A stretch of 64,000 nucleotides of DNA from positions 285,969-349,968 of the forward strand of contig VMGB01000001.1 in the NCBI GenBank assembly GCA_007376295.1. Direction: 5' to 3'. Positions within the stretch are counted from its first letter, which is position 1. Each line of letters starts with the position of its first letter. Source of the DNA: Parcubacteria group bacterium Gr01-1014_13 (lineage in GTDB: Bacteria; Patescibacteriota; Patescibacteriia; Magasanikbacterales; GWA2-37-8). A program made the position numbers and the translations under genes. This document shows positions 7,300 through 37,298 of this stretch, piece by piece. Under the pieces are notes generated by a model. The model was not told the origin of the DNA, made no database searches, and was given only the letters and a program-made list of their open reading frames with translations.

Positions 7300-8490
7300 T
7301 TAACTTTTTTGTAGCCGACGAGAATAGTACCAAGCCGCTAACAACGTGGTAAGGGGTACGGCTATCACCAATACTGTACTTCCTACCAAGGTACGAACAA
7401 TTTCTTCCGCAATAAAATTACTGTTTAGGGTGACCCATAAAGATTGGGTTTTTTGCGTACTATAAAGCAACAATAAAGGAAACGAGGCCCCAACATAGGC
7501 AAGAAATAAAGTATTGATAAGGGAAGCGATATGTTCCCGGCCAACTGATATACCGCTTTTATAAAGCTGCTGAAACGTAAGGGAGTTATTGGCAGTTGAA
7601 ATTTCTTCTACAGCCGCGGCTTGGCCTGTAGTTACATCATCTAAAACTCCGAGAACGCCGATAATAATACTGCCGAGCAATAATCCTTGTAAATTAATAT
7701 TAAAGGTATCGAACTGTAAATAAAACGCTTCTTCTGTGCCATTGCCAGCCACTTTGGCCATATATACAAAAAGTAGATCTATAACCACCGCCAATGCCAA
7801 ACACAACATAGAGCTTACCAAAGCAATGCTAGTTCTTTTATTAAACCCATGTGATAAATATAGCGACAAGAGAAGAATAACGACTGCTCCGATTACACAT
7901 GTCCAAAGTGGATCAGCGCCTTTGATAATATGCGGAATAATGTAATAAAAGATAACGACGATACTAAAAATCATCCCTATAACAGATGTCAAACCGCGTT
8001 TGCGGCCAAAATAAATAGCGAGAGCAAAAAATATTGCGGTGATCAGTAGCAGGTTGGGCGTGCGATATCTGTCGGTAATATAATATACATCTTTTTGTCC
8101 TTGTGTATGTGAAGGTTTGGATAGAATTACAGTCTCCCCTTCCCTTACTTTTTGAAATACTCCGATAACAAAGTCTTTACCATGATCAATAACTACACGC
8201 TTACCCTTTTCATCGCCATTTAAAATTTCCAGCTCTAACTTTTGGTACTCCTGCACGCGGCCATCTATCGTTACTGTGCCGGATTCCAAAATTTTCAGCA
8301 CCTTGGCACGATAAGAGATATCCCCTGTTTCGGTAGCTACTGGTACTGCCGGCAGATCCGGATTCTCCAAAAAGACCGCTGTATCTTGCTGATCCGACGC
8401 AGTATCGGTCGCGGCTCTGGCCACACCAATATTTAATAAACAAGCAAACAGTACCAGACATACCAAAATCCACTTTATTTTATATATCAT
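7300..8490 (-). CDS. YibE/F-like integral membrane protein with an N-terminal secreted domain
   Basis: Signal peptide, ~150-aa soluble domain, then ~6 TM helices. The architecture resembles the YibE/F family. Confidence 0.5.
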   Translation of the reverse strand: MIYKIKWILVCLVLFACLLNIGVARAATDTASDQQDTAVFLENPDLPAVPVATETGDISYRAKVLKILESGTVTIDGRVQEYQKLELEILNGDEKGKRVVIDHGKDFVIGVFQKVREGETVILSKPSHTQGQKDVYYITDRYRTPNLLLITAIFFALAIYFGRKRGLTSVIGMIFSIVVIFYYIIPHIIKGADPLWTCVIGAVVILLLSLYLSHGFNKRTSIALVSSMLCLALAVVIDLLFVYMAKVAGNGTEEAFYLQFDTFNINLQGLLLGSIIIGVLGVLDDVTTGQAAAVEEISTANNSLTFQQLYKSGISVGREHIASLINTLFLAYVGASFPLLLLYSTQKTQSLWVTLNSNFIAEEIVRTLVGSTVLVIAVPLTTLLAAWYYSRRLQKS

Positions 8491-26370: not shown

Positions 26371-28926
26371 ATGCAAGAAGTTGTAAATTTTTTGATAAAC
26401 TTTTTAAACTCTTTGCTAGAAAGTAATCTTTTTAATTTATTGCTACCTCCGGCTTTTGGGGTGGTGCTTTTAGTTTCTTTTATATACATCCTGCGCGCTA
26501 TATTCATAGTCAAAAGCCGAGAAAGCAAAGCTTTCCATAAAACCGTCATGCTCATAAAAGTTCCTAAAGAAAAGAAGGGAGAAAAAGCGGAATCCATGAA
26601 TTCGGAAGCTAACCTGAATCAGGTACGTGAAGAAATTGCTGTAGCCGAAACCCTTTTTTCGGCCATCGCCGGCCTAAAACGAGAAAGTGGCTTTATTTCT
26701 TGGCTCAAAGGCAGAAACGATCATGTTTCCTTTGAAATCGTGGTAAAAGACAGCAAAATATCATTTTATGTGGCTGTTCCAGATAAAACCAAAGGATTTG
26801 TCGAGCAACAAATTCACGCCCAATACCCGCATGCCGAAATCACCGAAGAGCCGGACTACAATATCTTCAAACCTCAAAGCCATATTGTTGGCGCTTATTT
26901 GTGGCTCAAACACAAATCAGCTTTTCCTTTAAAAACATACAAAAAATTGGATAGCGATCCGCTAATAGCGCTACTTAACCCACTAAGTAAAATATTGGAA
27001 GACGAAGGCGCTATTATTCAATGTGTTGTCCGTCCCGCTACAGGTAAATGGAGACAGCAAGGTGTTGGTTTGATTCGTGATATAAAAAAAGGAGAAAAAT
27101 TTGAGTATGTTGCCAAACGCGGAGCTTTCGGTAAATTTTTTAGCGGCTGGGGTAAATTATTATTCGCCAAAAAGAAAGAAGTTGGTGAACAACATGGCGG
27201 ACAAACTTACCAAATCACGCAAATGGAAGAAGAGATGGTAAAAAACATGGAAGAAAAAATCAGTCGCGGCGGTTTGGAAACAACTTTACGTTTAGTGAGC
27301 TCGGCCAACAACAAAGAAAAAGCGATGTTAAATCTGGAAAATATTATTAACGCCTTTAGCCAATATAACCTATACCGCTACGGCAATACTTTGGCAGCGG
27401 TTATACCTCGCCGACCTAGCGCGCTGATTCGTGATTATATATATCGTTCCATGCGCGATGACAAGTACATGGTGTTTAATACCGAAGAAATGGCTAGTTT
27501 GTGGCATTTACCTGTCCCGAGCACCGAAACTCCCAATATCAACTGGCTGGGGGCGCGCAAAGCTCCACCACCAACCAATATGCCTAAAGAAGGCATTATT
27601 CTTGGCCGGGCTGTTTACCGCGGGGAAGAAACAGTTGTACGAATGAAACGCGAAGACCGCCGCCGTCACCTTTACACTATCGGTAAGTCCGGTAGTGGAA
27701 AATCTGTCTTTATCCAAAACTTAGCAGTACAGGACATTATAAACGGCGAGGGTGTGTGCGTCATTGATCCACACGGAGACTTTGCCGAATATGTTTTGCA
27801 ACATGTACCAAAAGAAAGAGCCGAAGATGTGATTTATTTTAACCCGTCAGATACTGAACGCCCTATCGGCCTAAACATGTTGGAAATATCTTCTGAAGAA
27901 CAAAAAGATTTTGCTACTCAGGAAATGATTGCTATTTTTTATCGTCTCGTGACCGACCCATCGATGATCGGACCAATGTTTGAACATAACATGCGAAATG
28001 TAATGCTTACTTTGATGGCTGATATGGTGAACCCCGGCACTATCGCCGAAATTCCGCGCATGTTTACCGATGATGAATTTGTCGAGCAGTGGAAGAAAAA
28101 ACTTACCGACCCAATGGTGCTGGCTTTCTGGGAAAAAGAAATGGCCAAAACCTCTGATTTCCATAAATCAGAAATGTTGGGATATTTAATTTCCAAAGTC
28201 GGAAGATTTGTGGAAAACGCGATGATCCGAAATATTATTGGCCAGTCCCACTCCGGATTTAACTTCCGAGAAATCATGGATAAGAAAAAAATTCTCATTG
28301 TAAATTTAGCCAAAGGTTTGGTAGGAGAAATAAATTCCAACTTGCTAGGGTTAATTATTGTTTCCAAATTACAAATGACAGCTTTAGAACGAGCCTCTCT
28401 GCCAGAAGAACAACGCAATGATTTTTATCTATATATAGATGAGTTCCAAAACTTTATTACCGAATCTATCGCCACTATTCTTTCCGAAGCGCGTAAATAT
28501 CGCTTAGAATTGATTATCGCCCACCAATATATGAAGCAATTGGAAGACAACAAGGGCAAAACTACAGTGCGCGACGCAGTGCTGGGCAATGCGGGCACGA
28601 TCGTATCTTTCCGTATCGGCGTAGAAGACGCCGAAGTTCTAGCCAAAGAATTCGCCCCTGTATTTAGCGCCTATGATTTAGTAAATGTGGAACAGTACAC
28701 AGCCTATGCCAAACTTCTCATTGACAATACCGCCGCTAAGCCGTTTAATATGCTTACCTACCCTCCCCGCACGGGTAACAAAGAGCTGGCCGCGGCTATT
28801 AAAGAGCTTTCTAGGCTCAAATATGGCCGGCCAAGAGAGATTGTTGAAGCCGAGATAGCGGAAAGAGCCCGATTAGGATCTGTAGTGGCCGAAAGCAACC
28901 CAGCAGTGACTGAAACAAGTCTTTAA
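26371..28926 (+). CDS. VirD4/TraG/TraD-like type IV coupling ATPase with an N-terminal TM and a ~400-aa CPR-type N-domain
   Basis: Walker A GKSGSGKS, Walker B LYIDEFQNF, TraG-D_C-like SEARKYRLELIIAHQYMKQL. 851 aa. Confidence 0.75.
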   Translation: MQEVVNFLINFLNSLLESNLFNLLLPPAFGVVLLVSFIYILRAIFIVKSRESKAFHKTVMLIKVPKEKKGEKAESMNSEANLNQVREEIAVAETLFSAIAGLKRESGFISWLKGRNDHVSFEIVVKDSKISFYVAVPDKTKGFVEQQIHAQYPHAEITEEPDYNIFKPQSHIVGAYLWLKHKSAFPLKTYKKLDSDPLIALLNPLSKILEDEGAIIQCVVRPATGKWRQQGVGLIRDIKKGEKFEYVAKRGAFGKFFSGWGKLLFAKKKEVGEQHGGQTYQITQMEEEMVKNMEEKISRGGLETTLRLVSSANNKEKAMLNLENIINAFSQYNLYRYGNTLAAVIPRRPSALIRDYIYRSMRDDKYMVFNTEEMASLWHLPVPSTETPNINWLGARKAPPPTNMPKEGIILGRAVYRGEETVVRMKREDRRRHLYTIGKSGSGKSVFIQNLAVQDIINGEGVCVIDPHGDFAEYVLQHVPKERAEDVIYFNPSDTERPIGLNMLEISSEEQKDFATQEMIAIFYRLVTDPSMIGPMFEHNMRNVMLTLMADMVNPGTIAEIPRMFTDDEFVEQWKKKLTDPMVLAFWEKEMAKTSDFHKSEMLGYLISKVGRFVENAMIRNIIGQSHSGFNFREIMDKKKILIVNLAKGLVGEINSNLLGLIIVSKLQMTALERASLPEEQRNDFYLYIDEFQNFITESIATILSEARKYRLELIIAHQYMKQLEDNKGKTTVRDAVLGNAGTIVSFRIGVEDAEVLAKEFAPVFSAYDLVNVEQYTAYAKLLIDNTAAKPFNMLTYPPRTGNKELAAAIKELSRLKYGRPREIVEAEIAERARLGSVVAESNPAVTETSL

Positions 28927-28935
28927 TCCCCTTTT

Positions 28936-30510
28936 ATGTCCACAATTTACCGCAAGTACCGCCCTCAACAATTTTCTGATGTTACTGGGCAAGAACATAT
29001 CATAAAAACAATTACTAACGAAGTAAATACAAATAAGATAGCGCATGCCTATCTTTTTTCCGGTCCTCGTGGAACTGGTAAAACCACTCTAGCTCGTTTA
29101 CTAGCTAAAGCAATCAATTGCCCGGATCGTAAAAAAAACGACTATGAACCTTGCGGCACATGCCAATCCTGTACAGAAATTACTGCCGGCCACAGTATAG
29201 ACATAATTGAGATAGACGCGGCCAGCCACACTGGTGTAGACAATGTGCGCGAAAATATTATCGATAACGCGCAATTTAAACCCACAAAATCAAAATACAA
29301 AGTCTTTATTATCGACGAAGTGCACATGCTTTCCACCAGCGCTTTTAATGCGCTGCTAAAGACCTTAGAAGAACCACCAAGTCATGTAATTTTTGTTTTG
29401 GCCACTACTGAACAACACAAGTTGCCAGCCACCATTATTTCCCGTTGCCAACGTTTTAATTTCAAAAGAGTTGGTTACGAGGACATGATGAAACGATTGG
29501 CAGAAATTTGTAAAAGCGAAAAAGTAAAAGTTGATAAAAAAGTTTTGGAACGTATCATAAACAAAAGTGACGGCTGTATGCGTGATGCCGAAAGTTTGTT
29601 GGGACAGGTACTAAGCTTAGATCTAAAAGATATTGGCCCAGAAGACGCAGAAATGATACTGCCCACTTCTAATATTCAAACCGTACTGGAATTTATTGAC
29701 GCAGTCTTTGATAGACAAGTTTCCGTAGCTATAAAAATCCTTCAAGATCAAGTGGCTGATGGCGTAAATCTGGAACAGTTTGCCTATGACTGTTTGGAAG
29801 CCATGCGTTTGCTGATGATTTTACAAATTGATCCCCAAACAAAAAATATAACTGTGGATTATAACAATGAAGCTGTAAAAGAACTCAAAAAAATCTCTGC
29901 AAAAGCTACACCATTGCACCTTGTAAAAATGATTGAATCGTTAGTTTCCCGCCGCCGTGATATAAAATCAGCTCCAATGCCACAATTGCCATTAGAATTA
30001 TTTGTAATAGAATTTACTTGTTCCTCTGATCAAGGTTCTGAGCAACCGCTTGTTATTACAAACAAAGAATCTGTCATGCCACAAAAGGCTTCTCTCAACA
30101 CGATTCAAGATGACAACCAAGAAAAACCATTACATGCCATTACCCAAACCATAAAAGATACTATTTCCACCCTAACCCACAGACCCGTTAAAACAACCAC
30201 AGAAGAAATAAAATCAAAATGGAATGATGTGATCCAAGCAGTGGCCAAAGAAAATCACTCGCTTGGTTTTATATTAAAAATGTGCGATATTAAAGATGTA
30301 AATGATGAGGGCTTGCACTTATCTGTCCCCTACTCTTTTCACAAAGATAAACTAGATGAAAATAAAACGAAAAAAACCATAGAAAAAACTTTGACCGAAT
30401 TTTTTTCTGAACATATACAATTACACTGCGCTGTTTCCGAGAATTCAATACAAAAAAATGATGAGGAATTAAATAAAGTAGCCGCTGATTTTGGCGGTGA
30501 AATAATTTAA
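28936..30510 (+). CDS. dnaX: DNA polymerase III subunit gamma/tau
   Basis: GPRGTGKTT Walker A, DEVHML box, clamp-loader sensor motifs and zinc module CxxC..CxxC. Confidence 0.85.
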   Translation: MSTIYRKYRPQQFSDVTGQEHIIKTITNEVNTNKIAHAYLFSGPRGTGKTTLARLLAKAINCPDRKKNDYEPCGTCQSCTEITAGHSIDIIEIDAASHTGVDNVRENIIDNAQFKPTKSKYKVFIIDEVHMLSTSAFNALLKTLEEPPSHVIFVLATTEQHKLPATIISRCQRFNFKRVGYEDMMKRLAEICKSEKVKVDKKVLERIINKSDGCMRDAESLLGQVLSLDLKDIGPEDAEMILPTSNIQTVLEFIDAVFDRQVSVAIKILQDQVADGVNLEQFAYDCLEAMRLLMILQIDPQTKNITVDYNNEAVKELKKISAKATPLHLVKMIESLVSRRRDIKSAPMPQLPLELFVIEFTCSSDQGSEQPLVITNKESVMPQKASLNTIQDDNQEKPLHAITQTIKDTISTLTHRPVKTTTEEIKSKWNDVIQAVAKENHSLGFILKMCDIKDVNDEGLHLSVPYSFHKDKLDENKTKKTIEKTLTEFFSEHIQLHCAVSENSIQKNDEELNKVAADFGGEII

Positions 30511-30515
30511 TCAAT

Positions 30516-31382
30516 ATGAAAAAATTTGTTATAAAATTTATTGTAACTTTTTCAATATTGATTCTGATGGGATCCGGGTGCAATGCCGCCACCACTACCC
30601 CGCCTTCTCCTTTAAGCACAGCAAAAGAAAAAGTTAATTTGCTTGTACCATATATACCAGAAGCTCCGGAAGGGCTAATGGTAAAACCTTGGAATAATTC
30701 CTGTGAAGAAGCTTCTACAGCCATGCTTGATGAATATTATTTTGGCAACAGAGCCAAGGGGGTTAGTATTCCAAAAGCAAAAAAAATGATACTTGATTAT
30801 ATAAATATCGAAAACAAGCTGTTTGGCTACAATGGCAATACCAATGCCGCCGAAATGACAAAGCTAATAAATGAGTACTCAAAATATTTTGAAGCTACAA
30901 TAAAAACTAACCCGACCTTGGAAGAAATAAAAAATGAACTCGAATCAGGCCGGCCGGTAATCGCCCTGCTCTACGGCAAAGACCTAAACAATCCCCGCAT
31001 CCAGTTTGCCCGTAGCGGTTCTTATTATCATACTTTGGTAATTAAAGGCTTTGATGAGGAAACTAAAGAATTTATCGTAAACGACAACGGCGACTTTAAA
31101 CAAGGCCTTGACTTGCGCTATTCTTATGATACAATCCTAGGCGCTCTGCGTGATTACGATCACAAAACTCAACAAACGGTAAAACCGGCCACAGCGCTAT
31201 TTACCAGCCAGAGAATGCTGGTAAAGACCAAGGACAGCGGCCGAATTTATCTAATTAAAGACAACAAAAAATACCGTATTTCTTCTCCACAGGTCTTTAA
31301 AGATCGCAAGTGGAAATGGAGTTTGGTAATGACTGTTACCAAATCCTGGCTGGATAAATTTGAATCCGGACCGGCGATATAA
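30516..31382 (+). CDS. Lipoprotein with a C39-like (papain-fold) peptidase domain
   Basis: Lipobox LMGSGC. Candidate catalytic Cys (NSCEEAS) and His (YYHTLVIKGFD) arranged as in Peptidase_C39_2. Confidence 0.5.
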   Translation: MKKFVIKFIVTFSILILMGSGCNAATTTPPSPLSTAKEKVNLLVPYIPEAPEGLMVKPWNNSCEEASTAMLDEYYFGNRAKGVSIPKAKKMILDYINIENKLFGYNGNTNAAEMTKLINEYSKYFEATIKTNPTLEEIKNELESGRPVIALLYGKDLNNPRIQFARSGSYYHTLVIKGFDEETKEFIVNDNGDFKQGLDLRYSYDTILGALRDYDHKTQQTVKPATALFTSQRMLVKTKDSGRIYLIKDNKKYRISSPQVFKDRKWKWSLVMTVTKSWLDKFESGPAI

Positions 31383-31383
31383 C

Positions 31384-31454
31384 TCCGAGGTGGTCTAATG
31401 GTAGGACAGCAGACTCTGAATCTGCTTATCTTGGTTCGAATCCAAGCCTCGGAA
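31384..31454 (+). tRNA. tRNA-Gln(CTG)
   Basis: Acceptor TCCGAGG/CCTCGGA, anticodon stem GCAGA/TCTGC with loop CTCTGAA, T-arm CTTGG-TTCGAAT-CCAAG. CCA not encoded. Confidence 0.75.
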
Positions 31455-31619
31455 CAATGAAGAAATCTGCGCTCAAGTCAGCGAAAGCTGACCTCATGTT
31501 AATTTATTTTTTCCTGCTTTGCAAAATTGGGTGTGGATAAACATTAAAACCATGTTTAAAACACGCTGAATGAGCGCCGCGGTGGTCAAAACGATGCTAA
31601 GTTCCCTGCTTTAGACACT

Positions 31620-31647
31620 AAAAAACACCCGGTTATGGGTGTTTTTA
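31620..31647. terminator. Terminator downstream of fic (ACACCC-GGTTAT-GGGTGT + T-run)
   Basis: Hairpin flanked by A5/T5. Confidence 0.55.
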
Positions 31648-31656
31648 GTAAACAAT

Positions 31657-33009
31657 TTACTGCTTGAAAAGTTTCTCTATCTTCTTATTTGCAAAATAAT
31701 GAAGTTTTCTACCAACCTGTTTAATATCCAAAAAACCTAGGGCAGCAAGCTTCTTTAAATCTTGAGTGGCAGTTTTACGTGTTATCTGATTAATACTTGA
31801 ATGAATCTTAATTGAAGTCCTTGCTTCTGAATCACCATGTAAGTACTGCAACAAACGAATTTGACGATCGTTTAAATCATAATTAGTTCGTACAACTTTG
31901 TTCATTACTTTATTAGCTTCAGTTTGCTCATGAAGATAGGTCTTAAACTCTTTCACTGCCATTTTAATTTTTGCAATATTGTAATCAATAAAATAAGTTA
32001 AATCATTATCGTCTTGTTCAGAATAAACATAAGCCATCGAATACTGTTTGGGTGATTTTTTTATAATCTTTGAAATCGGCAAATATGCAAAGGCCCAGTA
32101 CCCATTCTTTAACAAATACCAATAAAATAATAAACGCGCTAATCGCCCATTTCCATCTGTAAATGGATGTAGATAAGCTATCCAGAAGTGAATCATTATA
32201 GCCTTTACAATAGGGTGTATGAATGAATCGTCTAACTCATCGTTAGCAAATTTTACAAATCGTTCTAACTCTTCCTTTACAAAATCAATATCAGGTGCTT
32301 TGTGATAAATAATCCCTGTAGTTCTATCCACTACAAAAATATCCTCGCCCTTATTACGCAAACGTGGGACCTCACCTTCAGGAGTTAGAGTGTCTTTGGT
32401 GATGGACCCATGAAGTTCATATAATAAACTAAGGCTCATTTTTTTATCTTTATAACCATCTTCAATGGCTTTCATTGAAAGATAATTATTCAAGATCATT
32501 TTTTCTGATTCATTTCGTGGTTTTCTTCCTTCTCGCAAAAATTGTTTTGCTAATCTTCTACTAGTACTAGCTCCTTCAAGCTGAGAAGAGGCTATCGCTT
32601 CTTCCATAACACCTCTAGAAATTAATTTTTGTTTTGTTGCTTTATCGAAATCAGATTTCAAAACAAAAAGCTCGCCTCCTGTATTCATATCTACTTCGTG
32701 GAAGAATTTTTCTAATTGTGGTAATTTTAACCACGTAAAAAAACCACCCTTCTCATTCTTTATGATGGTATTTATTGATGTGATATGTCGCATCATTTTG
32801 ACTGTCTGCCAAAGCTCCTCTTTAGTAAGGTCTTTATTAGGCAGTGGTTCTTTATATTTAACTTTATCCCAAAACAAATAATCGGGCTCATTTAAACTAT
32901 CAATGAAACCGCGCAACTTTTGCCCTTCTGAATTAAAGAGGGCTTCCGTTACTTTTTTAACATCTATGTTCTTTAAATTTGGCTTATCTAAGCTAAAATA
33001 CTCTGACAT
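31657..33009 (-). CDS. Fic-family protein (AMPylation/phosphocholination type) with an N-terminal inhibitory SxxxEG motif and a C-terminal winged-helix DNA-binding domain
   Basis: HPFTDGNGRLARLL Fic motif, ASSQLEGAS inhibitory motif, C-terminal HTH (SINQITRKTATQDLKKLAALGFLD). 450 aa. Confidence 0.85.
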   Translation of the reverse strand: MSEYFSLDKPNLKNIDVKKVTEALFNSEGQKLRGFIDSLNEPDYLFWDKVKYKEPLPNKDLTKEELWQTVKMMRHITSINTIIKNEKGGFFTWLKLPQLEKFFHEVDMNTGGELFVLKSDFDKATKQKLISRGVMEEAIASSQLEGASTSRRLAKQFLREGRKPRNESEKMILNNYLSMKAIEDGYKDKKMSLSLLYELHGSITKDTLTPEGEVPRLRNKGEDIFVVDRTTGIIYHKAPDIDFVKEELERFVKFANDELDDSFIHPIVKAIMIHFWIAYLHPFTDGNGRLARLLFYWYLLKNGYWAFAYLPISKIIKKSPKQYSMAYVYSEQDDNDLTYFIDYNIAKIKMAVKEFKTYLHEQTEANKVMNKVVRTNYDLNDRQIRLLQYLHGDSEARTSIKIHSSINQITRKTATQDLKKLAALGFLDIKQVGRKLHYFANKKIEKLFKQ

Positions 33010-33011
33010 AT

Positions 33012-33103
33012 TGGGTAATTACACATTAATTATACATATATTACACATATCCTATATATTTGTCAAATTATGGGTAATTACCCATTAATTATACATATAT
33101 TAT
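33012..33103. promoter_or_regulatory. Two 33-bp direct repeats (TGGGTAATTAC[A/C]CATTAATTATACATATATTA) 59 bp apart in the fic upstream region, each containing the palindrome GGGTAATTACCC. Candidate operator and promoter
   Basis: Repeat units at 33012-33044 and 33071-33103. The second holds the perfect 14-bp palindrome TGGGTAATTACCCA. The region is AT-rich and −10-like. Confidence 0.45.
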
Positions 33104-33270
33104 ACCATAATATTTTTAATCCATCCATGGCGCCTTCTGGGCATCTAAAGTCCCTTTTCTTGTCCAAAAACCCTAAAAACCCCAAAATCATTTTGGCTAA
33201 TCTTAGCGCAACATAGACACTGTTCCGGTCCTTCGAATCCAAACCTCGGAACAATTAAATTAAACTTGAA

Positions 33271-33723
33271 TTACTCAACTGGAATATCAAAATGGTAAAC
33301 ATCTTCTTTTGTCCCCAAAGACTTATATAGCTTTATGGCTGGCATATCACCGTGATCAGCCTGAACAAAAATTATATAGGCACCCCGCTCTTTAGCGATT
33401 TGTTTAAGATTTTTTATTAATTGAGTAGCCAGCCCTTTCCGACGATGAAGTTCTATGACTGCCAAATCATAAATATATATTTCTTTTCTTTTTTGTTCAA
33501 ATTTTTCTAATTCATAGGCAACTAAGCCACCCACAACTTCATTTTCGTATAAAGCCGCCAAAACAATAAAATTAGACTTACCCAACAACGATACTAGGTA
33601 CTGATCGTCGGGAACAGACCTTTGATACGTTTCTACGTCCTGAAATGCTTCACCAAAAACTTTAAGCAGTTGCTTAAAATGGTTTAAATCAGTATTGCTA
33701 AGTTGCTTAAAAGAATAAGTCAT
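33271..33723 (-). CDS. GNAT-family N-acetyltransferase
   Basis: Acetyl-CoA binding motif RRKGLATQLIKNLKQIAKERGA. 150 aa. Confidence 0.7.
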   Translation of the reverse strand: MTYSFKQLSNTDLNHFKQLLKVFGEAFQDVETYQRSVPDDQYLVSLLGKSNFIVLAALYENEVVGGLVAYELEKFEQKRKEIYIYDLAVIELHRRKGLATQLIKNLKQIAKERGAYIIFVQADHGDMPAIKLYKSLGTKEDVYHFDIPVE

Positions 33724-33729
33724 TGGTAT

Positions 33730-34485
33730 TTAAACCTTCCTCCCCTCCAAAAATAAAAACAAAGGAAATTCTTTTCTAGCTTTGTCTTCGGCTGTAAAAC
33801 GCGGACCGCGAGTTGGTTCGCGATGCGAAATCCATTCTTCCAGTTTGGCTACGGCAAAACCATTTTTTCGAAGCATTTTAAAATACCATTGTAGTGAACG
33901 GTGAAAAGAAACTGTCTTTTCTGATTTCTTTTTTCCTGGATGCATATCTATTTCTGTTTGAAATTCAGATAAATATGCGTCCATGCGACGGTGCTGAACT
34001 TTTTCCTTTTCATCCCATTGCCAACTGGAAACTTTTGGCGCTCGGAAGGCTGGATGATTGATTACTAAAAATATACTACCTGTATCTTTCAAAACTCTGG
34101 CACACTCAGCCAAAACACCATCCACATTTTTTATATTCTGCAAAGCTAAAATTATTGTAATTGCGTCCACAGATTTATCTGGGCAAAATTTAATACTGTC
34201 TGCCGGAGATACATGGTATTCCACATTTCTCGTTTCATGTTGTTTGGCTATCTTTATTAATTCAGGTGAAATATCTGAAGCAATAACTTTAGCCCCGCTT
34301 TGGCTAAAAATACGGGCAAAAAATCCTTGGCCGCAAGCCAAATCCAAAACAACTTGGTTTTTACCCAAATTCATAGACCGAACCAAGTTTGGCAAGATAA
34401 CTTTCTGCTGAAAAGAATCATCGTCTTTTTCTAGCATGTTATCGTACCAACTCGCCACTTTACCCCAAGAAGTTGCTTTTTTCAT
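33730..34485 (-). CDS. Class I SAM-dependent methyltransferase
   Basis: Motif I VLDLACGQGFF. Rossmann MTase fold. 251 aa. Confidence 0.7.
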   Translation of the reverse strand: MKKATSWGKVASWYDNMLEKDDDSFQQKVILPNLVRSMNLGKNQVVLDLACGQGFFARIFSQSGAKVIASDISPELIKIAKQHETRNVEYHVSPADSIKFCPDKSVDAITIILALQNIKNVDGVLAECARVLKDTGSIFLVINHPAFRAPKVSSWQWDEKEKVQHRRMDAYLSEFQTEIDMHPGKKKSEKTVSFHRSLQWYFKMLRKNGFAVAKLEEWISHREPTRGPRFTAEDKARKEFPLFLFLEGRKV

Positions 34486-34565
34486 GCGTGTAGTTTAGCG
34501 AAAAAGAGGCGTTTGGTCAACCGGCCAGACTTGCAAAATAAGGGAAAAAGTGATAGTATTTCGGT

Positions 34566-35417
34566 ATGTCAAATATTATAGACGGCAAAACTATTGCAGC
34601 AAAGATAGAAAATGAGACCGCCAAACAGGTGGCTATTTTGAAAACCAAAGGTATTACGCCTAAACTGGCCGTTGTTTTGGTGGGCGAAGACAGACCATCA
34701 AGAATTTACATAAAAAGAAAAAAAGAAGCGGCGCAGCGTGTGGGTATTAATTTTGAGCTGCACGAACTTCCCGAAAATATCTCTAAAGAAGGACTGATAG
34801 AAGCGGTAAACAAAATCCAGACAGACCCCCTGCTCACAGGGCTAATAATCCAGCTTCCCTTACCTGAACATCTTTATGTACCAGAAGTTCTTAATGCAAT
34901 AAACACTGATATAGATGTAGATTGTTTGACCGACTGCAATATTGGCAAACTGGTAATGAAGACGAATCTAATAGAACCACCTACTCCTTGGGCAGTAGTG
35001 AAAACTTTAAAAGAAATTAATTTTGATTTAACTGGAAAAAACGCGGTAATTATCGGCGCTGGCGCGCTGGTTGGAAAACCGCTGGCCATAATGCTGGTAA
35101 ACGAGCTGGCGAGTGTCACCACCTGCAATAGCCGCACCAAAGATATAAAAGATAAATGCTTAAAAGCTGATGTGATTGTTTGCGCTGTAGGCAAGAATAA
35201 CCTGCTTACTGCCGATATGGTAAAAAAAGGAACAGTCGTGATAGACACCGGCATAGTTTATACTGATGGCAAAATGCATGGTGATGTTGATTTTATACCA
35301 GTTTCCAAAAAAGCTAGCTTCATTACCCCTACTCCGGGCGGTATCGGCCCTATCACTGTAGCTAAACTTCTTCTAAATACAGTGATTTGCGCGGAAAAGA
35401 AAAACAGGATACTATAA
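34566..35417 (+). CDS. folD: Bifunctional methylene-THF dehydrogenase/methenyl-THF cyclohydrolase
   Basis: Typical FolD N-terminus IIDGKTIA, NAD(P) site GAGALVGKP, C-terminal TPTPGGIGPIT. Confidence 0.9.
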   Translation: MSNIIDGKTIAAKIENETAKQVAILKTKGITPKLAVVLVGEDRPSRIYIKRKKEAAQRVGINFELHELPENISKEGLIEAVNKIQTDPLLTGLIIQLPLPEHLYVPEVLNAINTDIDVDCLTDCNIGKLVMKTNLIEPPTPWAVVKTLKEINFDLTGKNAVIIGAGALVGKPLAIMLVNELASVTTCNSRTKDIKDKCLKADVIVCAVGKNNLLTADMVKKGTVVIDTGIVYTDGKMHGDVDFIPVSKKASFITPTPGGIGPITVAKLLLNTVICAEKKNRIL

Positions 35418-35888: not shown

Positions 35889-37298
35889 TTAAGCGTAAGG
35901 TAATTCCGCAGGAGGCGTTTCTTCTTCCTCTGCAGCTTCTGGCAGTGCTTCCTGAACTTTTCTGCGCAGCGGACTTTCAGTCATTTCTTCTATAGGTAAA
36001 TTAATAGGCGGCTCAGCTCTCTTGCTGGCTGTTTTTTGTAATAGCGGAGTTTTAACCAACGGCAATGGGAAGTGCCACAGAGTGGCCAGTTCCTGAATAT
36101 TTAAAATATATGGATTATGACCAATTTTAATTTTTCTTTTCTTGTACGCACTGACAAATTTTTTCTTTATTTCCAAAATACGGTAATTTTTAAATGCATA
36201 ATGCGCCGTGGTGGCTGCCACCGGGACAATAGCATTACGTCCTGCATAATCAAATTGATTTAGGGATCCGACAAAGCCATCCAAACAACGGCTAGGGTTA
36301 AATACCTCCTTAGGCGCGGCATACAAAACCCGGCATTTCGTTTTGAATCCAATTTTGGAAATTTTTTCTTCTATCGCCGCTATGGTATCCCTCACTCCAG
36401 GAGTTAAATCCGAGAGTTTGCCGGGCATTTCTTCTTTTTTCTTGGCCGGACCTTCTTCACTTGGTGACTGAACCGCCTTTAAAAGCTCGTTAAACAAACT
36501 ATTTAATAGTTTAAATAGAAAAAATGGCTGGGACGTATCCTTTTTATTTTCAATAATTTTTTTGACTAACTCTATACCATTAGCTTTCCATTTACTAGAG
36601 GTTGGTTCGATAATAATCTGAAACCAAAGATTTTCTCCGGTACTGATACGGGTAAAATTTTCTAATATAGAGGCCATGGGATCATGAAACATCGCGTCCT
36701 TGCTAATATTGTGTTCAAATTCCGAATAAGTTCGGATCGGATATGGATCCGGAGCAGCCAAACCAAACTCCAAACCAAACATTTCGTGTGTTTCGTTGGG
36801 ATATGCTGTGGGAATACCGTCGACATAATCCTCTACTTCGGTAATTTCAGCCATCGGATACTGAGCATAAACTGCCGCCTCTACTAAATCCCGGTAAGTA
36901 GCTTCGGTAAAAATTAAAAATTGAATATAGCCTTCGAGGCTGATAATTTCCAAACTAAACCATCTTTGTTTTACACCCTGCCAATACTTTTGACCAAAAT
37001 TTGGTTCGAAAAGCGCCCCGCTCAGGTGGGCAAAAATTTGTTCCACTGCTTTTGGACTTTGAATAGTGTCTGGAGGCACATCTACGGCCAGAACAACCCA
37101 TTCCCAATTGCTTGTATATTTGTTCTGCCGGAGATTTACCCAAAGCTGGGCCCCCATGAAAAAAAATATCAAAGCCAAAACAGCCCACCCGACAATAGCA
37201 AAAATTACCCAAGCCATTTGTCCGGTAGGAAGGGTGAGGATTGTGTTCCAAAAAGAAAAATCAACAATAATGCCAAATGGTAATTCGGTGCCCGGCAT
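35889..37298 (-). CDS. ATPase-less paralog of the N-terminal domain of the VirD4-like coupling protein (TM anchor + N-domain only)
   Basis: FSLEIISLEGYIQFLIFTEATYRDLVEAAVYAQYPMAEITEVEDYV aligns with FEIVVKDSKISFYVAVPDKTKGFVEQQIHAQYPHAEITEEPDYN of the 851-aa protein. ATLWHFPLPLVKTP aligns with ASLWHLPVPSTETP. No Walker motifs. Confidence 0.65.
   Translation of the reverse strand: MPGTELPFGIIVDFSFWNTILTLPTGQMAWVIFAIVGWAVLALIFFFMGAQLWVNLRQNKYTSNWEWVVLAVDVPPDTIQSPKAVEQIFAHLSGALFEPNFGQKYWQGVKQRWFSLEIISLEGYIQFLIFTEATYRDLVEAAVYAQYPMAEITEVEDYVDGIPTAYPNETHEMFGLEFGLAAPDPYPIRTYSEFEHNISKDAMFHDPMASILENFTRISTGENLWFQIIIEPTSSKWKANGIELVKKIIENKKDTSQPFFLFKLLNSLFNELLKAVQSPSEEGPAKKKEEMPGKLSDLTPGVRDTIAAIEEKISKIGFKTKCRVLYAAPKEVFNPSRCLDGFVGSLNQFDYAGRNAIVPVAATTAHYAFKNYRILEIKKKFVSAYKKRKIKIGHNPYILNIQELATLWHFPLPLVKTPLLQKTASKRAEPPINLPIEEMTESPLRRKVQEALPEAAEEEETPPAELPYA

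Follow-up and report, generated by a model that had tools for sequence, protein, structure and literature searches.

A tRNA-Gln(CTG) gene in the genome of Parcubacteria group bacterium Gr01-1014_13 is followed by a 1.8-kb islet that holds a single credible gene, an open reading frame (ORF) encoding a Fic protein. We analysed this islet within a 64-kb stretch of contig VMGB01000001.1 (64,000 nucleotides; hereafter the window, in whose coordinates positions are given). Comparison with related loci supports an insertion into the 3' end of tRNA-Gln, bounded by the attachment sites attL and attR. An earlier note on this DNA had proposed such an insertion from a repeat of the tRNA 3' end, and had described the islet as probably a decayed island that had lost its integrase.

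The two copies of the repeat share a 24-nt block made up of the final 20 bases of the tRNA, which begin with the first T-loop base and end with the discriminator, and the next four bases (CAAT). They agree at 23 of 24 positions, in keeping with the single mismatch of the earlier note, whose coordinates were off by at most one base; the difference is a G in attL that is an A in attR. A pattern search of the window with TTCGAATCCAAGCCTCGGAACAAT returned these two copies only, and a second copy of the block appeared in none of 100 dinucleotide shuffles. The start of the block in the T-loop and its end just beyond the tRNA match the T-loop class of integration sites in tRNA genes, one of the sublocation classes reportedly set out by Williams in 2002. 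At attR, Rfam was silent even at E<=10 and so was ARAGORN, which rules out a second tRNA or pseudo-tRNA at this position. The G-to-A change would disrupt a pair of the T-stem, and relatives have G here. It is most simply explained as a mutation that arose in the displaced copy once selection was gone. Derivation of the A variant from a donor is possible; the one metagenome match to this variant (CCAAACC, as in attR) is a tRNA-Gln(TTG) with the T-stem TTTGG/CCAAA (locus L106, 1813-1884). Six loci (L110, L113, L117, L118, L123, and L127) have a tRNA identical to the tRNA-Gln of the window.

We gathered relatives by (i) a dnaX-based scan of species-representative genomes and (ii) a metagenome scan with a 21-mer from the tRNA 3' end. 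The second scan gave 33 loci, all of them tRNA-Gln genes or truncated 3' ends of such genes at contig edges, and about 20 have the flanking genes of the window. Linkage of dnaX to tRNA-Gln(CTG), often with a C39 peptidase gene in between, is widespread in Patescibacteria, and the gene order in relatives is dnaX-C39 peptidase-tRNA-Gln-folD. Across the approximately 20 loci, protein identities to the window are 53-88% for FolD (most 76-88%), 44-85% for the C39 peptidase, and 81-94% for a 469-amino-acid protein.

Several relatives that lack the segment have tRNA-Gln directly abutting folD or a methyltransferase gene, as an empty site predicts. In seven loci folD lies directly 3' of the tRNA (L095, L098, L115, L125, and L111, with 0-9 nt between them; also L007 and L012), and in three others the methyltransferase does, followed by folD (L118, L104, and L108). 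Longer non-coding gaps separate the tRNA from folD in L112 (48 nt) and L109 (~240 nt). Other cargo occurs at the same place: a ~210-amino-acid hypothetical protein between the tRNA and the methyltransferase in L113 and L121, a 213-amino-acid protein in L124, and a radical-SAM gene that separates the tRNA from folD in L003. Neither Fic nor the GNAT acetyltransferase that lies beyond the islet in the window is encoded at any of the relatives' tRNA-Gln loci that we compared. The conserved second tRNA with a constant Fic neighbour that the earlier note named as the finding that would count against an insertion is thus not what these genomes contain.

The breakpoints of the insertion fall at the tRNA end (31456-31462). 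By BLASTN, the window has an extra segment from 31458/62 to 33729/30 relative to L118, L104, and L108, and from 31457 to 34565 relative to L095 and L098. The attR copy and its right flank (33232-33261) match the tRNA end and flank of L118 at 29 of 30 bases, which identifies the segment as a precise insertion with an attL/attR signature. Removal of the islet and the GNAT cassette in silico leaves a sequence that aligns without gaps to L118 (62/68) and L104 (61/68). Two further observations concern assemblies at this site. Logan assemblies of the same organism (SRR8863434; L001 and L002) break within tRNA-Gln, at window positions 31412-31427. We rejected population heterogeneity or excision as the cause, as tRNA k-mers common to related species probably explain the breaks. 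A perfect repeat of the tRNA end in L076 is a scaffold-gap artefact that contains a run of N.

The base composition of the islet is atypical. GC content is ~0.40-0.42 in the flanks but drops to ~0.32-0.35 over the Fic gene and GNAT, and the Fic module has a GC content of 0.326 versus 0.398 for the 64-kb window. Could the repeat nevertheless have arisen by chance, or by a local duplication in which mobile DNA had no part, with Fic an ordinary resident gene? Only the missing integrase (see below) speaks for this explanation, and we regard it as highly improbable given that shuffled sequences never reached a 23/24 match, that the breakpoints coincide with the repeat, that no relative has Fic, and that the composition of the islet is unusual.

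We then examined the protein that the islet encodes. It matches Pfam Fic (1.7e-16) and the PADLOC SoFic model (1.3e-39, with model positions 50-358 of 361 covered). It scores 58.8 bits against the NCBIfam SoFic equivalog NF046030, short of the cutoff of 550 for SoFic orthology, and 20 bits against Pfam SoFic-like_C, under the cutoff of 27. The active-site motif HPFTDGNGRLAR (H281-R292; H281-PFTDGNGRLAR-292) fits the pattern HxFx(D/E)GNGRxxR, and P282-R289, A291, and R292 are invariant in 38 homologues. An inhibitory motif, S141-SQL-E145-G146 (SxxxEG), lies N-terminal to the core and is invariant or nearly so in the same 38 homologues. An AlphaFold (AF2) model built on the homologue alignment has a predicted local distance difference test score (pLDDT) of 79.7 and a predicted template modelling score of 0.79. 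It contains a winged helix at the C-terminus (approximately residues 381-440), with an H-H-H-beta-beta unit of helices and strands, and an extra, confidently modelled N-terminal domain (residues 1-110) that has no Pfam match. The best Foldseek matches are the SoFic structures 3EQX, 3ZEC, and 3ZCN, with template modelling scores of 0.54 by query and 0.64 by target at ~16-17% identity. A distant match (E = 2.8e-6) is PDB 7XUX ('Fido domain-containing protein'), which we take to be CccR, a protein discussed below.

The AlphaFold model and the SoFic matches support a C-terminal winged helix in the predicted structure. Together with the alignment of 38 homologues, they bear out the architecture described in the earlier note: an intact HPFTDGNGR motif, an intramolecular SxxxEG motif, and a C-terminal winged helix-turn-helix. 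In place of the label 'Fic toxin-like' given there, and based on the PADLOC and Foldseek results, the protein is better named a SoFic-like, class II self-inhibited Fic, which is a known type of defence gene. SoFic is a validated single-gene anti-phage system, thought to work by toxic AMPylation (10.1101/2022.05.11.491447; PMC12249575). The Fic cargo of the islet is probably an anti-phage toxin; three of the nine Fic contexts described below are restriction-modification loci, an association with defence.

The region upstream of the Fic gene suggests how the gene may be regulated. A 35-nt repeat in two copies brackets the predicted promoter, and at the end of each copy stands a 14-bp palindrome with TAATTA at its centre; we refer to these palindromes as operators O1 and O2. 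We compared the upstream region (window 33009-33105) with those of L083 (7437-7590), L085 (~230-404), L086 (~7870-8001), L136, L137, and L139. The TTGACA box is kept at the same position upstream of Fic in homologues, and two palindromes stand at fixed positions on either side of it. Their arms vary together, such that palindromy is kept: the O1 position is occupied by AGTGTAATTACACT in L083 and L136, by ACTGTAATTACAGT in L085, and by GGTATAATTATACC in L086 and L139. Because the arms change together among homologues, the palindromes point to a protein that binds DNA as a dimer and co-evolves with its site. The obvious candidate for this binder is the predicted winged helix of the Fic protein itself, and the arrangement suggests that Fic is autoregulated through palindromic operators. 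Just after the Fic stop codon sits a terminator-like hairpin.

We propose that the segment 31459-33231, with the Fic module and its two flanking arms, is foreign DNA and became inserted at the 3' end of tRNA-Gln(CTG) by site-specific recombination of the tyrosine-integrase type, a use of tRNA genes whose general principle is established (PMC4383910). The incoming DNA would have brought a duplicate of the tRNA portion that runs from T-loop to 3' end. Integration would therefore have rebuilt the tRNA at the left junction (attL) and displaced the original tRNA end 1.8 kb to the right (attR), where it would have acquired one substitution since. The recombinase gene would then have been lost. With this gene gone, the islet would now be immobile or mobilisable only in trans, like a cis-mobilisable element (CIME). 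The module that remains would consist of a sigma-70-type promoter with two palindromic operators, a SoFic-like Fic AMPylase, and a terminator. In this scheme the AMPylase would be restrained by its own inhibitory glutamate, E145; its C-terminal winged helix would most likely bind the operators and repress the gene; and once triggered, the enzyme would most likely AMPylate a cellular target in an abortive-infection or toxin-type defence. We favour integration by this route, followed by reduction to a Fic-only islet, as the probable history, though with modest confidence, and regard a CIME-like remnant, left by reduction of a tyrosine-recombinase element, as the best description of the islet.

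The recombinase is the missing piece of this proposal. According to the ORF list and Pfam, the islet encodes Fic alone and no integrase. A search for the tyrosine-recombinase motif R..HxxR..Y, by a crude regular expression and not a profile hidden Markov model, found no ORF with the motif in the 64-kb window or beside any tRNA-Gln at ~115 loci. Across all ORFs, this crude screen returned only four Xer-like genes, none of them near tRNA-Gln. In IMG/VR, the 24-mer of the att core had no matches, and the eight matches of a 17-mer from it were all chance occurrences within coding DNA, lacking tRNA or att context. The metagenome 21-mer scan, IMG/VR, and the motif screen likewise revealed no fuller, integrase-bearing version of the element, which the earlier note had suggested looking for. 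The junction of the predicted attP of the islet would read ...CTGTTCCGGTCC-TTCGAATCCAARCCTCGGAACAAT-GAAGAAATCTGCG... The absence of an integrase from the islet and the window agrees with the 'decayed island' of the earlier note, but decay from an integrase-bearing ancestor goes a step beyond it.

Several observations weigh against the integrase-mediated history or parts of it. Neither an integrase gene, nor an integrase pseudogene, nor an attP-bearing element turned up in the islet, in the window (motif screen), at the ~115 tRNA-Gln loci, or in IMG/VR. The nearest relatives are just ~72-83% identical in flanking DNA, and the empty site is therefore read across species. The AF2 model is poor in the stretch that contains the inhibitory helix (residues 111-151, pLDDT below 50). 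At the nucleotide level, homology to other Fic modules is confined to the gene and its operators (31664-33081) and stops short of the islet arms. Finally, a tRNA gene was found at none of the seven homologue loci with scannable DNA, and Fic may therefore have come apart from the event that made the repeat.

The last two points bear on a two-step origin, in which an older integration left an att-flanked scar and the Fic module landed inside it later, by a mechanism that is not site-specific; the repeats would then not be the ends of the element that brought Fic. The contexts of Fic elsewhere speak for this origin. There are more than 5,000 homologues, many of them in diverse Patescibacteria at 57-81% identity, and more distant relatives are found on plasmids and in a few phages. 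Among nine contexts that we examined, the window included, three are restriction-modification loci (two type I operons and one site beside a type III system), one adjoins a large serine recombinase, and the other homologue contexts are housekeeping genes or contigs too short to tell. Fic homologues thus stand elsewhere in varied, non-tRNA contexts. Homology with these modules ends at the operator and the terminator, and the islet arms are host-like in GC content (0.40 and 0.37), in contrast to 0.326 for the Fic module. Moreover, att-flanked mini-inserts without cargo occur at the same site in three relatives (L110, L123, and L120), and the neighbouring AAC(3)-I gene is a precedent for precise insertion of a bare ORF here. 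On the other hand, two events are required at one spot, the window arms (~200 and ~125 nt) do not resemble the mini-inserts, and no target-site duplication or other junction signature is seen around the Fic module. Taken together, we give the two-step origin roughly one chance in a handful, the strongest of the alternatives and still rather unlikely.

Two type I operons among these contexts deserve mention in their own right: L092 (262-9066) has the order hsdM-Fic-hsdS-AAA ATPase-hsdR, and L139 (1-8595) has hsdS-x-Fic-hsdR followed by a SocA/Panacea-PemK pair, with Fic proteins 61-63% identical to that of the window. L083 and L084, which seemed to offer separate contexts of an identical Fic, represent one and the same locus, with 93% identity over 2.9 kb.

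The arms themselves contain little. Directly 3' of the tRNA, the left arm has a GTCAGC-GAAA-GCTGAC hairpin. The stretch around the right arm (33082-33231) has a GC content of 0.37, and a 58-amino-acid ORF that overlaps this arm (33078-33254) has no family match. When the arms were compared by BLAST with the remainder of the window and with ~135 retrieved loci, the operator part alone was matched.

Other att-flanked inserts are present at tRNA-Gln. In a more distant Patescibacteria genome, a 5.6-kb restriction-modification island (L046, 12679-18341) lies 3' of the tRNA-Gln that follows dnaX. Its gene products are a RadC-Dcm methylase fusion, a HaeII-type endonuclease, Vsr, an M15 peptidase, and a RelA/SpoT-domain protein. 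The island closes with a perfect 22-nt copy of the tRNA 3' end, in which a T-arm-like hairpin is also kept. The mini-inserts mentioned above, 87-96 nt long, lie directly 3' of tRNA-Gln (L110, 2825-2928; L123, 877-980; L120, 2132-2246) and are bounded by exact 17-22-nt repeats of the tRNA 3' end. Two strong hairpins (z = -3 to -6.5) make up each insert, and the second hairpin abuts the distal repeat. Homology among the three is not demonstrable, as a forced alignment gave 57% column identity; they may be scars or miniature att-bearing units. An integrase is absent from all five att-flanked tRNA-Gln inserts (the window, L046, L110, L120, and L123).

These inserts raise a third alternative, that the islet never had an integrase and is a small att-bearing cassette moved in trans by the recombinase of a phage, another island, or the host. 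In Patescibacteria, tRNA-Gln would then be a place where defence cassettes are exchanged. The lack of an integrase in all five inserts would fit, as would the similar size and two-hairpin build of the mini-inserts, which make a defined unit likelier than random deletion remnants, and the 23/24 identity still shared by attL and attR. However, neither IMG/VR nor the motif screen yielded a candidate recombinase or an attP, the mini-inserts cannot be aligned with each other, and the attR mismatch suggests a decaying site and not one in use. In addition, the strong deletion bias of small genomes accounts for the loss of an integrase without a new mechanism. We therefore consider movement in trans improbable, more so than a two-step origin. 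The broader form of this idea is a shade more doubtful still: that the post-dnaX tRNA-Gln of Patescibacteria is an exchange site for integrase-less att-flanked units, served by a recombinase in trans, and ranging from ~90-nt hairpin inserts to cassettes such as Fic or the 5.6-kb island of L046. If true, this site would be a defence-gene cassette system of ultra-small genomes, distinct from integrons and classical islands.

Table 1. Positions of the islet, its components, and the adjoining genes in the window.
Feature	Coordinates	Strand	Basis
dnaX, upstream of the C39 peptidase gene	28936-30510		
C39-like peptidase, conserved left flank	30516-31382	+	Pfam Peptidase_C39_2, 5.5e-14; syntenic with tRNA-Gln in relatives
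tRNA-Gln(CTG), intact; target gene and attL side	31384-31454/55	+	ARAGORN; Rfam tRNA, 69 bits at 31384-31454
attL core, T-loop to tRNA 3' end plus CAAT; TTCGAATCCAAGCCTCGGAACAAT	31435-31458	+	Repeat search (family D2), pattern search
Left arm of islet, non-coding, GC about 0.40	31459-31605	.	No ORF of note; fold z = -2.3
Terminator-like bidirectional hairpin: A-tract, ACACCC...GGGTGT, T-tract	31606-31656	.	RNA fold -16.3 kcal/mol, z = -4.0
Fic protein, 450 amino acids, predicted SoFic-like class II AMPylase	31657-33009	-	Pfam Fic, PADLOC SoFic, AF2, Foldseek
Operator O2, imperfect palindrome TGGGTAATTACACA, between -10 box and start codon	33012-33025	.	Repeat family D1, inverted repeat I2
Fic promoter: TTGACA, 17 nt, TAATAT	33066-33038	-	Joint-best sigma-70-like match in region, 10/12
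Operator O1, perfect 14-bp palindrome TGGGTAATTACCCA, just upstream of -35 box	33071-33084	.	Repeat search, homologue comparison
Right arm of islet, non-coding	33106-33231	.	No significant structure
attR core, displaced tRNA 3' end, 23/24 versus attL	33232-33255	+	Repeat and pattern search
AAC(3)-I aminoglycoside acetyltransferase cassette, outside islet	33260-33734 (coding sequence 33271-33723)	-	NCBIfam, PDB match
Class I S-adenosylmethionine (SAM) methyltransferase, outside islet	33730-34485	-	Pfam Methyltransf_11
folD, conserved right flank	34566-35417	+	Pfam THF_DHG_CYH

Beyond attR lie two genes that the earlier note placed, tentatively, in the same accessory block as Fic. The location is indeed a variable hot spot, but comparison with relatives puts both genes outside the att-bounded unit, as separate acquisitions. 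The GNAT scores 217.5 bits against NCBIfam AAC_3_I (NF033083), above the equivalog cutoff of 200, matches PDB 5HMN (2e-45) and 1BO4 (1.6e-37), and is named gentamicin 3'-N-acetyltransferase in the source record. Its insertion is a near-bare ORF of 470-475 nt between the tRNA flank and the stop codon of the methyltransferase gene, with TTAAA on both sides. Its nearest homologues, at ~70% identity, are scattered over unrelated phyla. By these sequence criteria the GNAT is an AAC(3)-I enzyme, and it arrived by a precise insertion separate from that of the Fic islet.

The methyltransferase is 76-87% identical in L104, L108, L110, L113, L118, L121, L123, and L124, and is missing from L095, L098, L112, L115, and L125. 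Judged by this distribution, it is an accessory gene older than the presumed acquisitions of GNAT and Fic. We discarded the PADLOC assignment (mad2) of this protein as a DNA methylase or defence gene: the match reflects a generic SAM-binding fold only, and NCBIfam points to UbiE-like small-molecule methyltransferases. The hot spot between tRNA-Gln and folD would thus have taken in the methyltransferase gene earlier and the AAC(3)-I gene separately. Farther out, an 851-amino-acid ORF (26371-28926, +) and the 469-amino-acid ORF (35889-37298, -) are distant paralogues (22-28% identity by tblastn), and both are kept beside dnaX and folD in many Patescibacteria.

Among known mobile elements, the islet resembles tRNA-gene islands of the Islander (tyrosine-integrase) type in having an intact tRNA at one end and a same-orientation 3' fragment at the other, with an identity block that starts in the T-loop, absence from relatives, atypical composition, and a defence-type cargo. 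It differs in having no integrase gene, for which Islander's own filter would reject it, and in being far smaller (1.8 kb, one gene) than such islands usually are. CIMEs are defined by att sites that are kept and recombination genes that are absent (PMC6323972). Like them, the islet keeps attL and attR (23/24) and has no integration or transfer genes; unlike them, it has no known cognate integrative and conjugative element, integrative and mobilisable element, or phage that uses this att site, and CIMEs have been described mainly in Firmicutes.

The Fic protein can be compared with three systems. With SoFic (Shewanella SO_4266, PDB 3EQX/3ZEC; E. coli EcSofic, PMC12249575) it shares the HPFxDGNGRxxR core, the N-terminal SxxxEG helix, and the C-terminal winged helix, whereas identity is only ~16-17% and the well-folded N-terminal domain of ~110 residues is extra. 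In contrast to EcSofic, it has no evident AS1-like small gene downstream: we found nothing convincing as such an antitoxin downstream of Fic, just a 31-amino-acid ORF with a TTG start beyond the terminator. CccR of Yersinia pseudotuberculosis combines Fic with a DNA-binding domain and represses its own promoter (PMC9755527), a self-repression that the islet Fic may share by analogy. CccR is, however, an effector secreted by a type VI secretion system that AMPylates FtsZ, and nothing suggests secretion of the islet Fic. In class I FicT/FicA toxin-antitoxin pairs, as in the proposed state of the islet Fic, an AMPylase is kept inactive by an inhibitory glutamate motif and is toxic on release. The islet Fic differs in carrying the motif within its own polypeptide (class II) and in lacking a separate antitoxin gene.

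Islets linked to tRNA genes, integrase-less remnants, and defence genes of the SoFic type are already established. As a genomic islet without an integrase, this one is a clear case but an ordinary one, and it does not overturn current understanding. Its value lies in a horizontal acquisition that is base-precise and validated by comparison, in the Candidate Phyla Radiation, where mobile elements are still poorly mapped. The comparison also reveals a recurrent landing pad between tRNA-Gln and folD, for a defence-type Fic, AAC(3)-I, and a methyltransferase in the window and for other cargo in relatives. Two main leads follow: (i) the recurrent integrase-less inserts at tRNA-Gln, and (ii) the co-varying operators, which predict that a large SoFic-like family represses its own gene through the winged helix.

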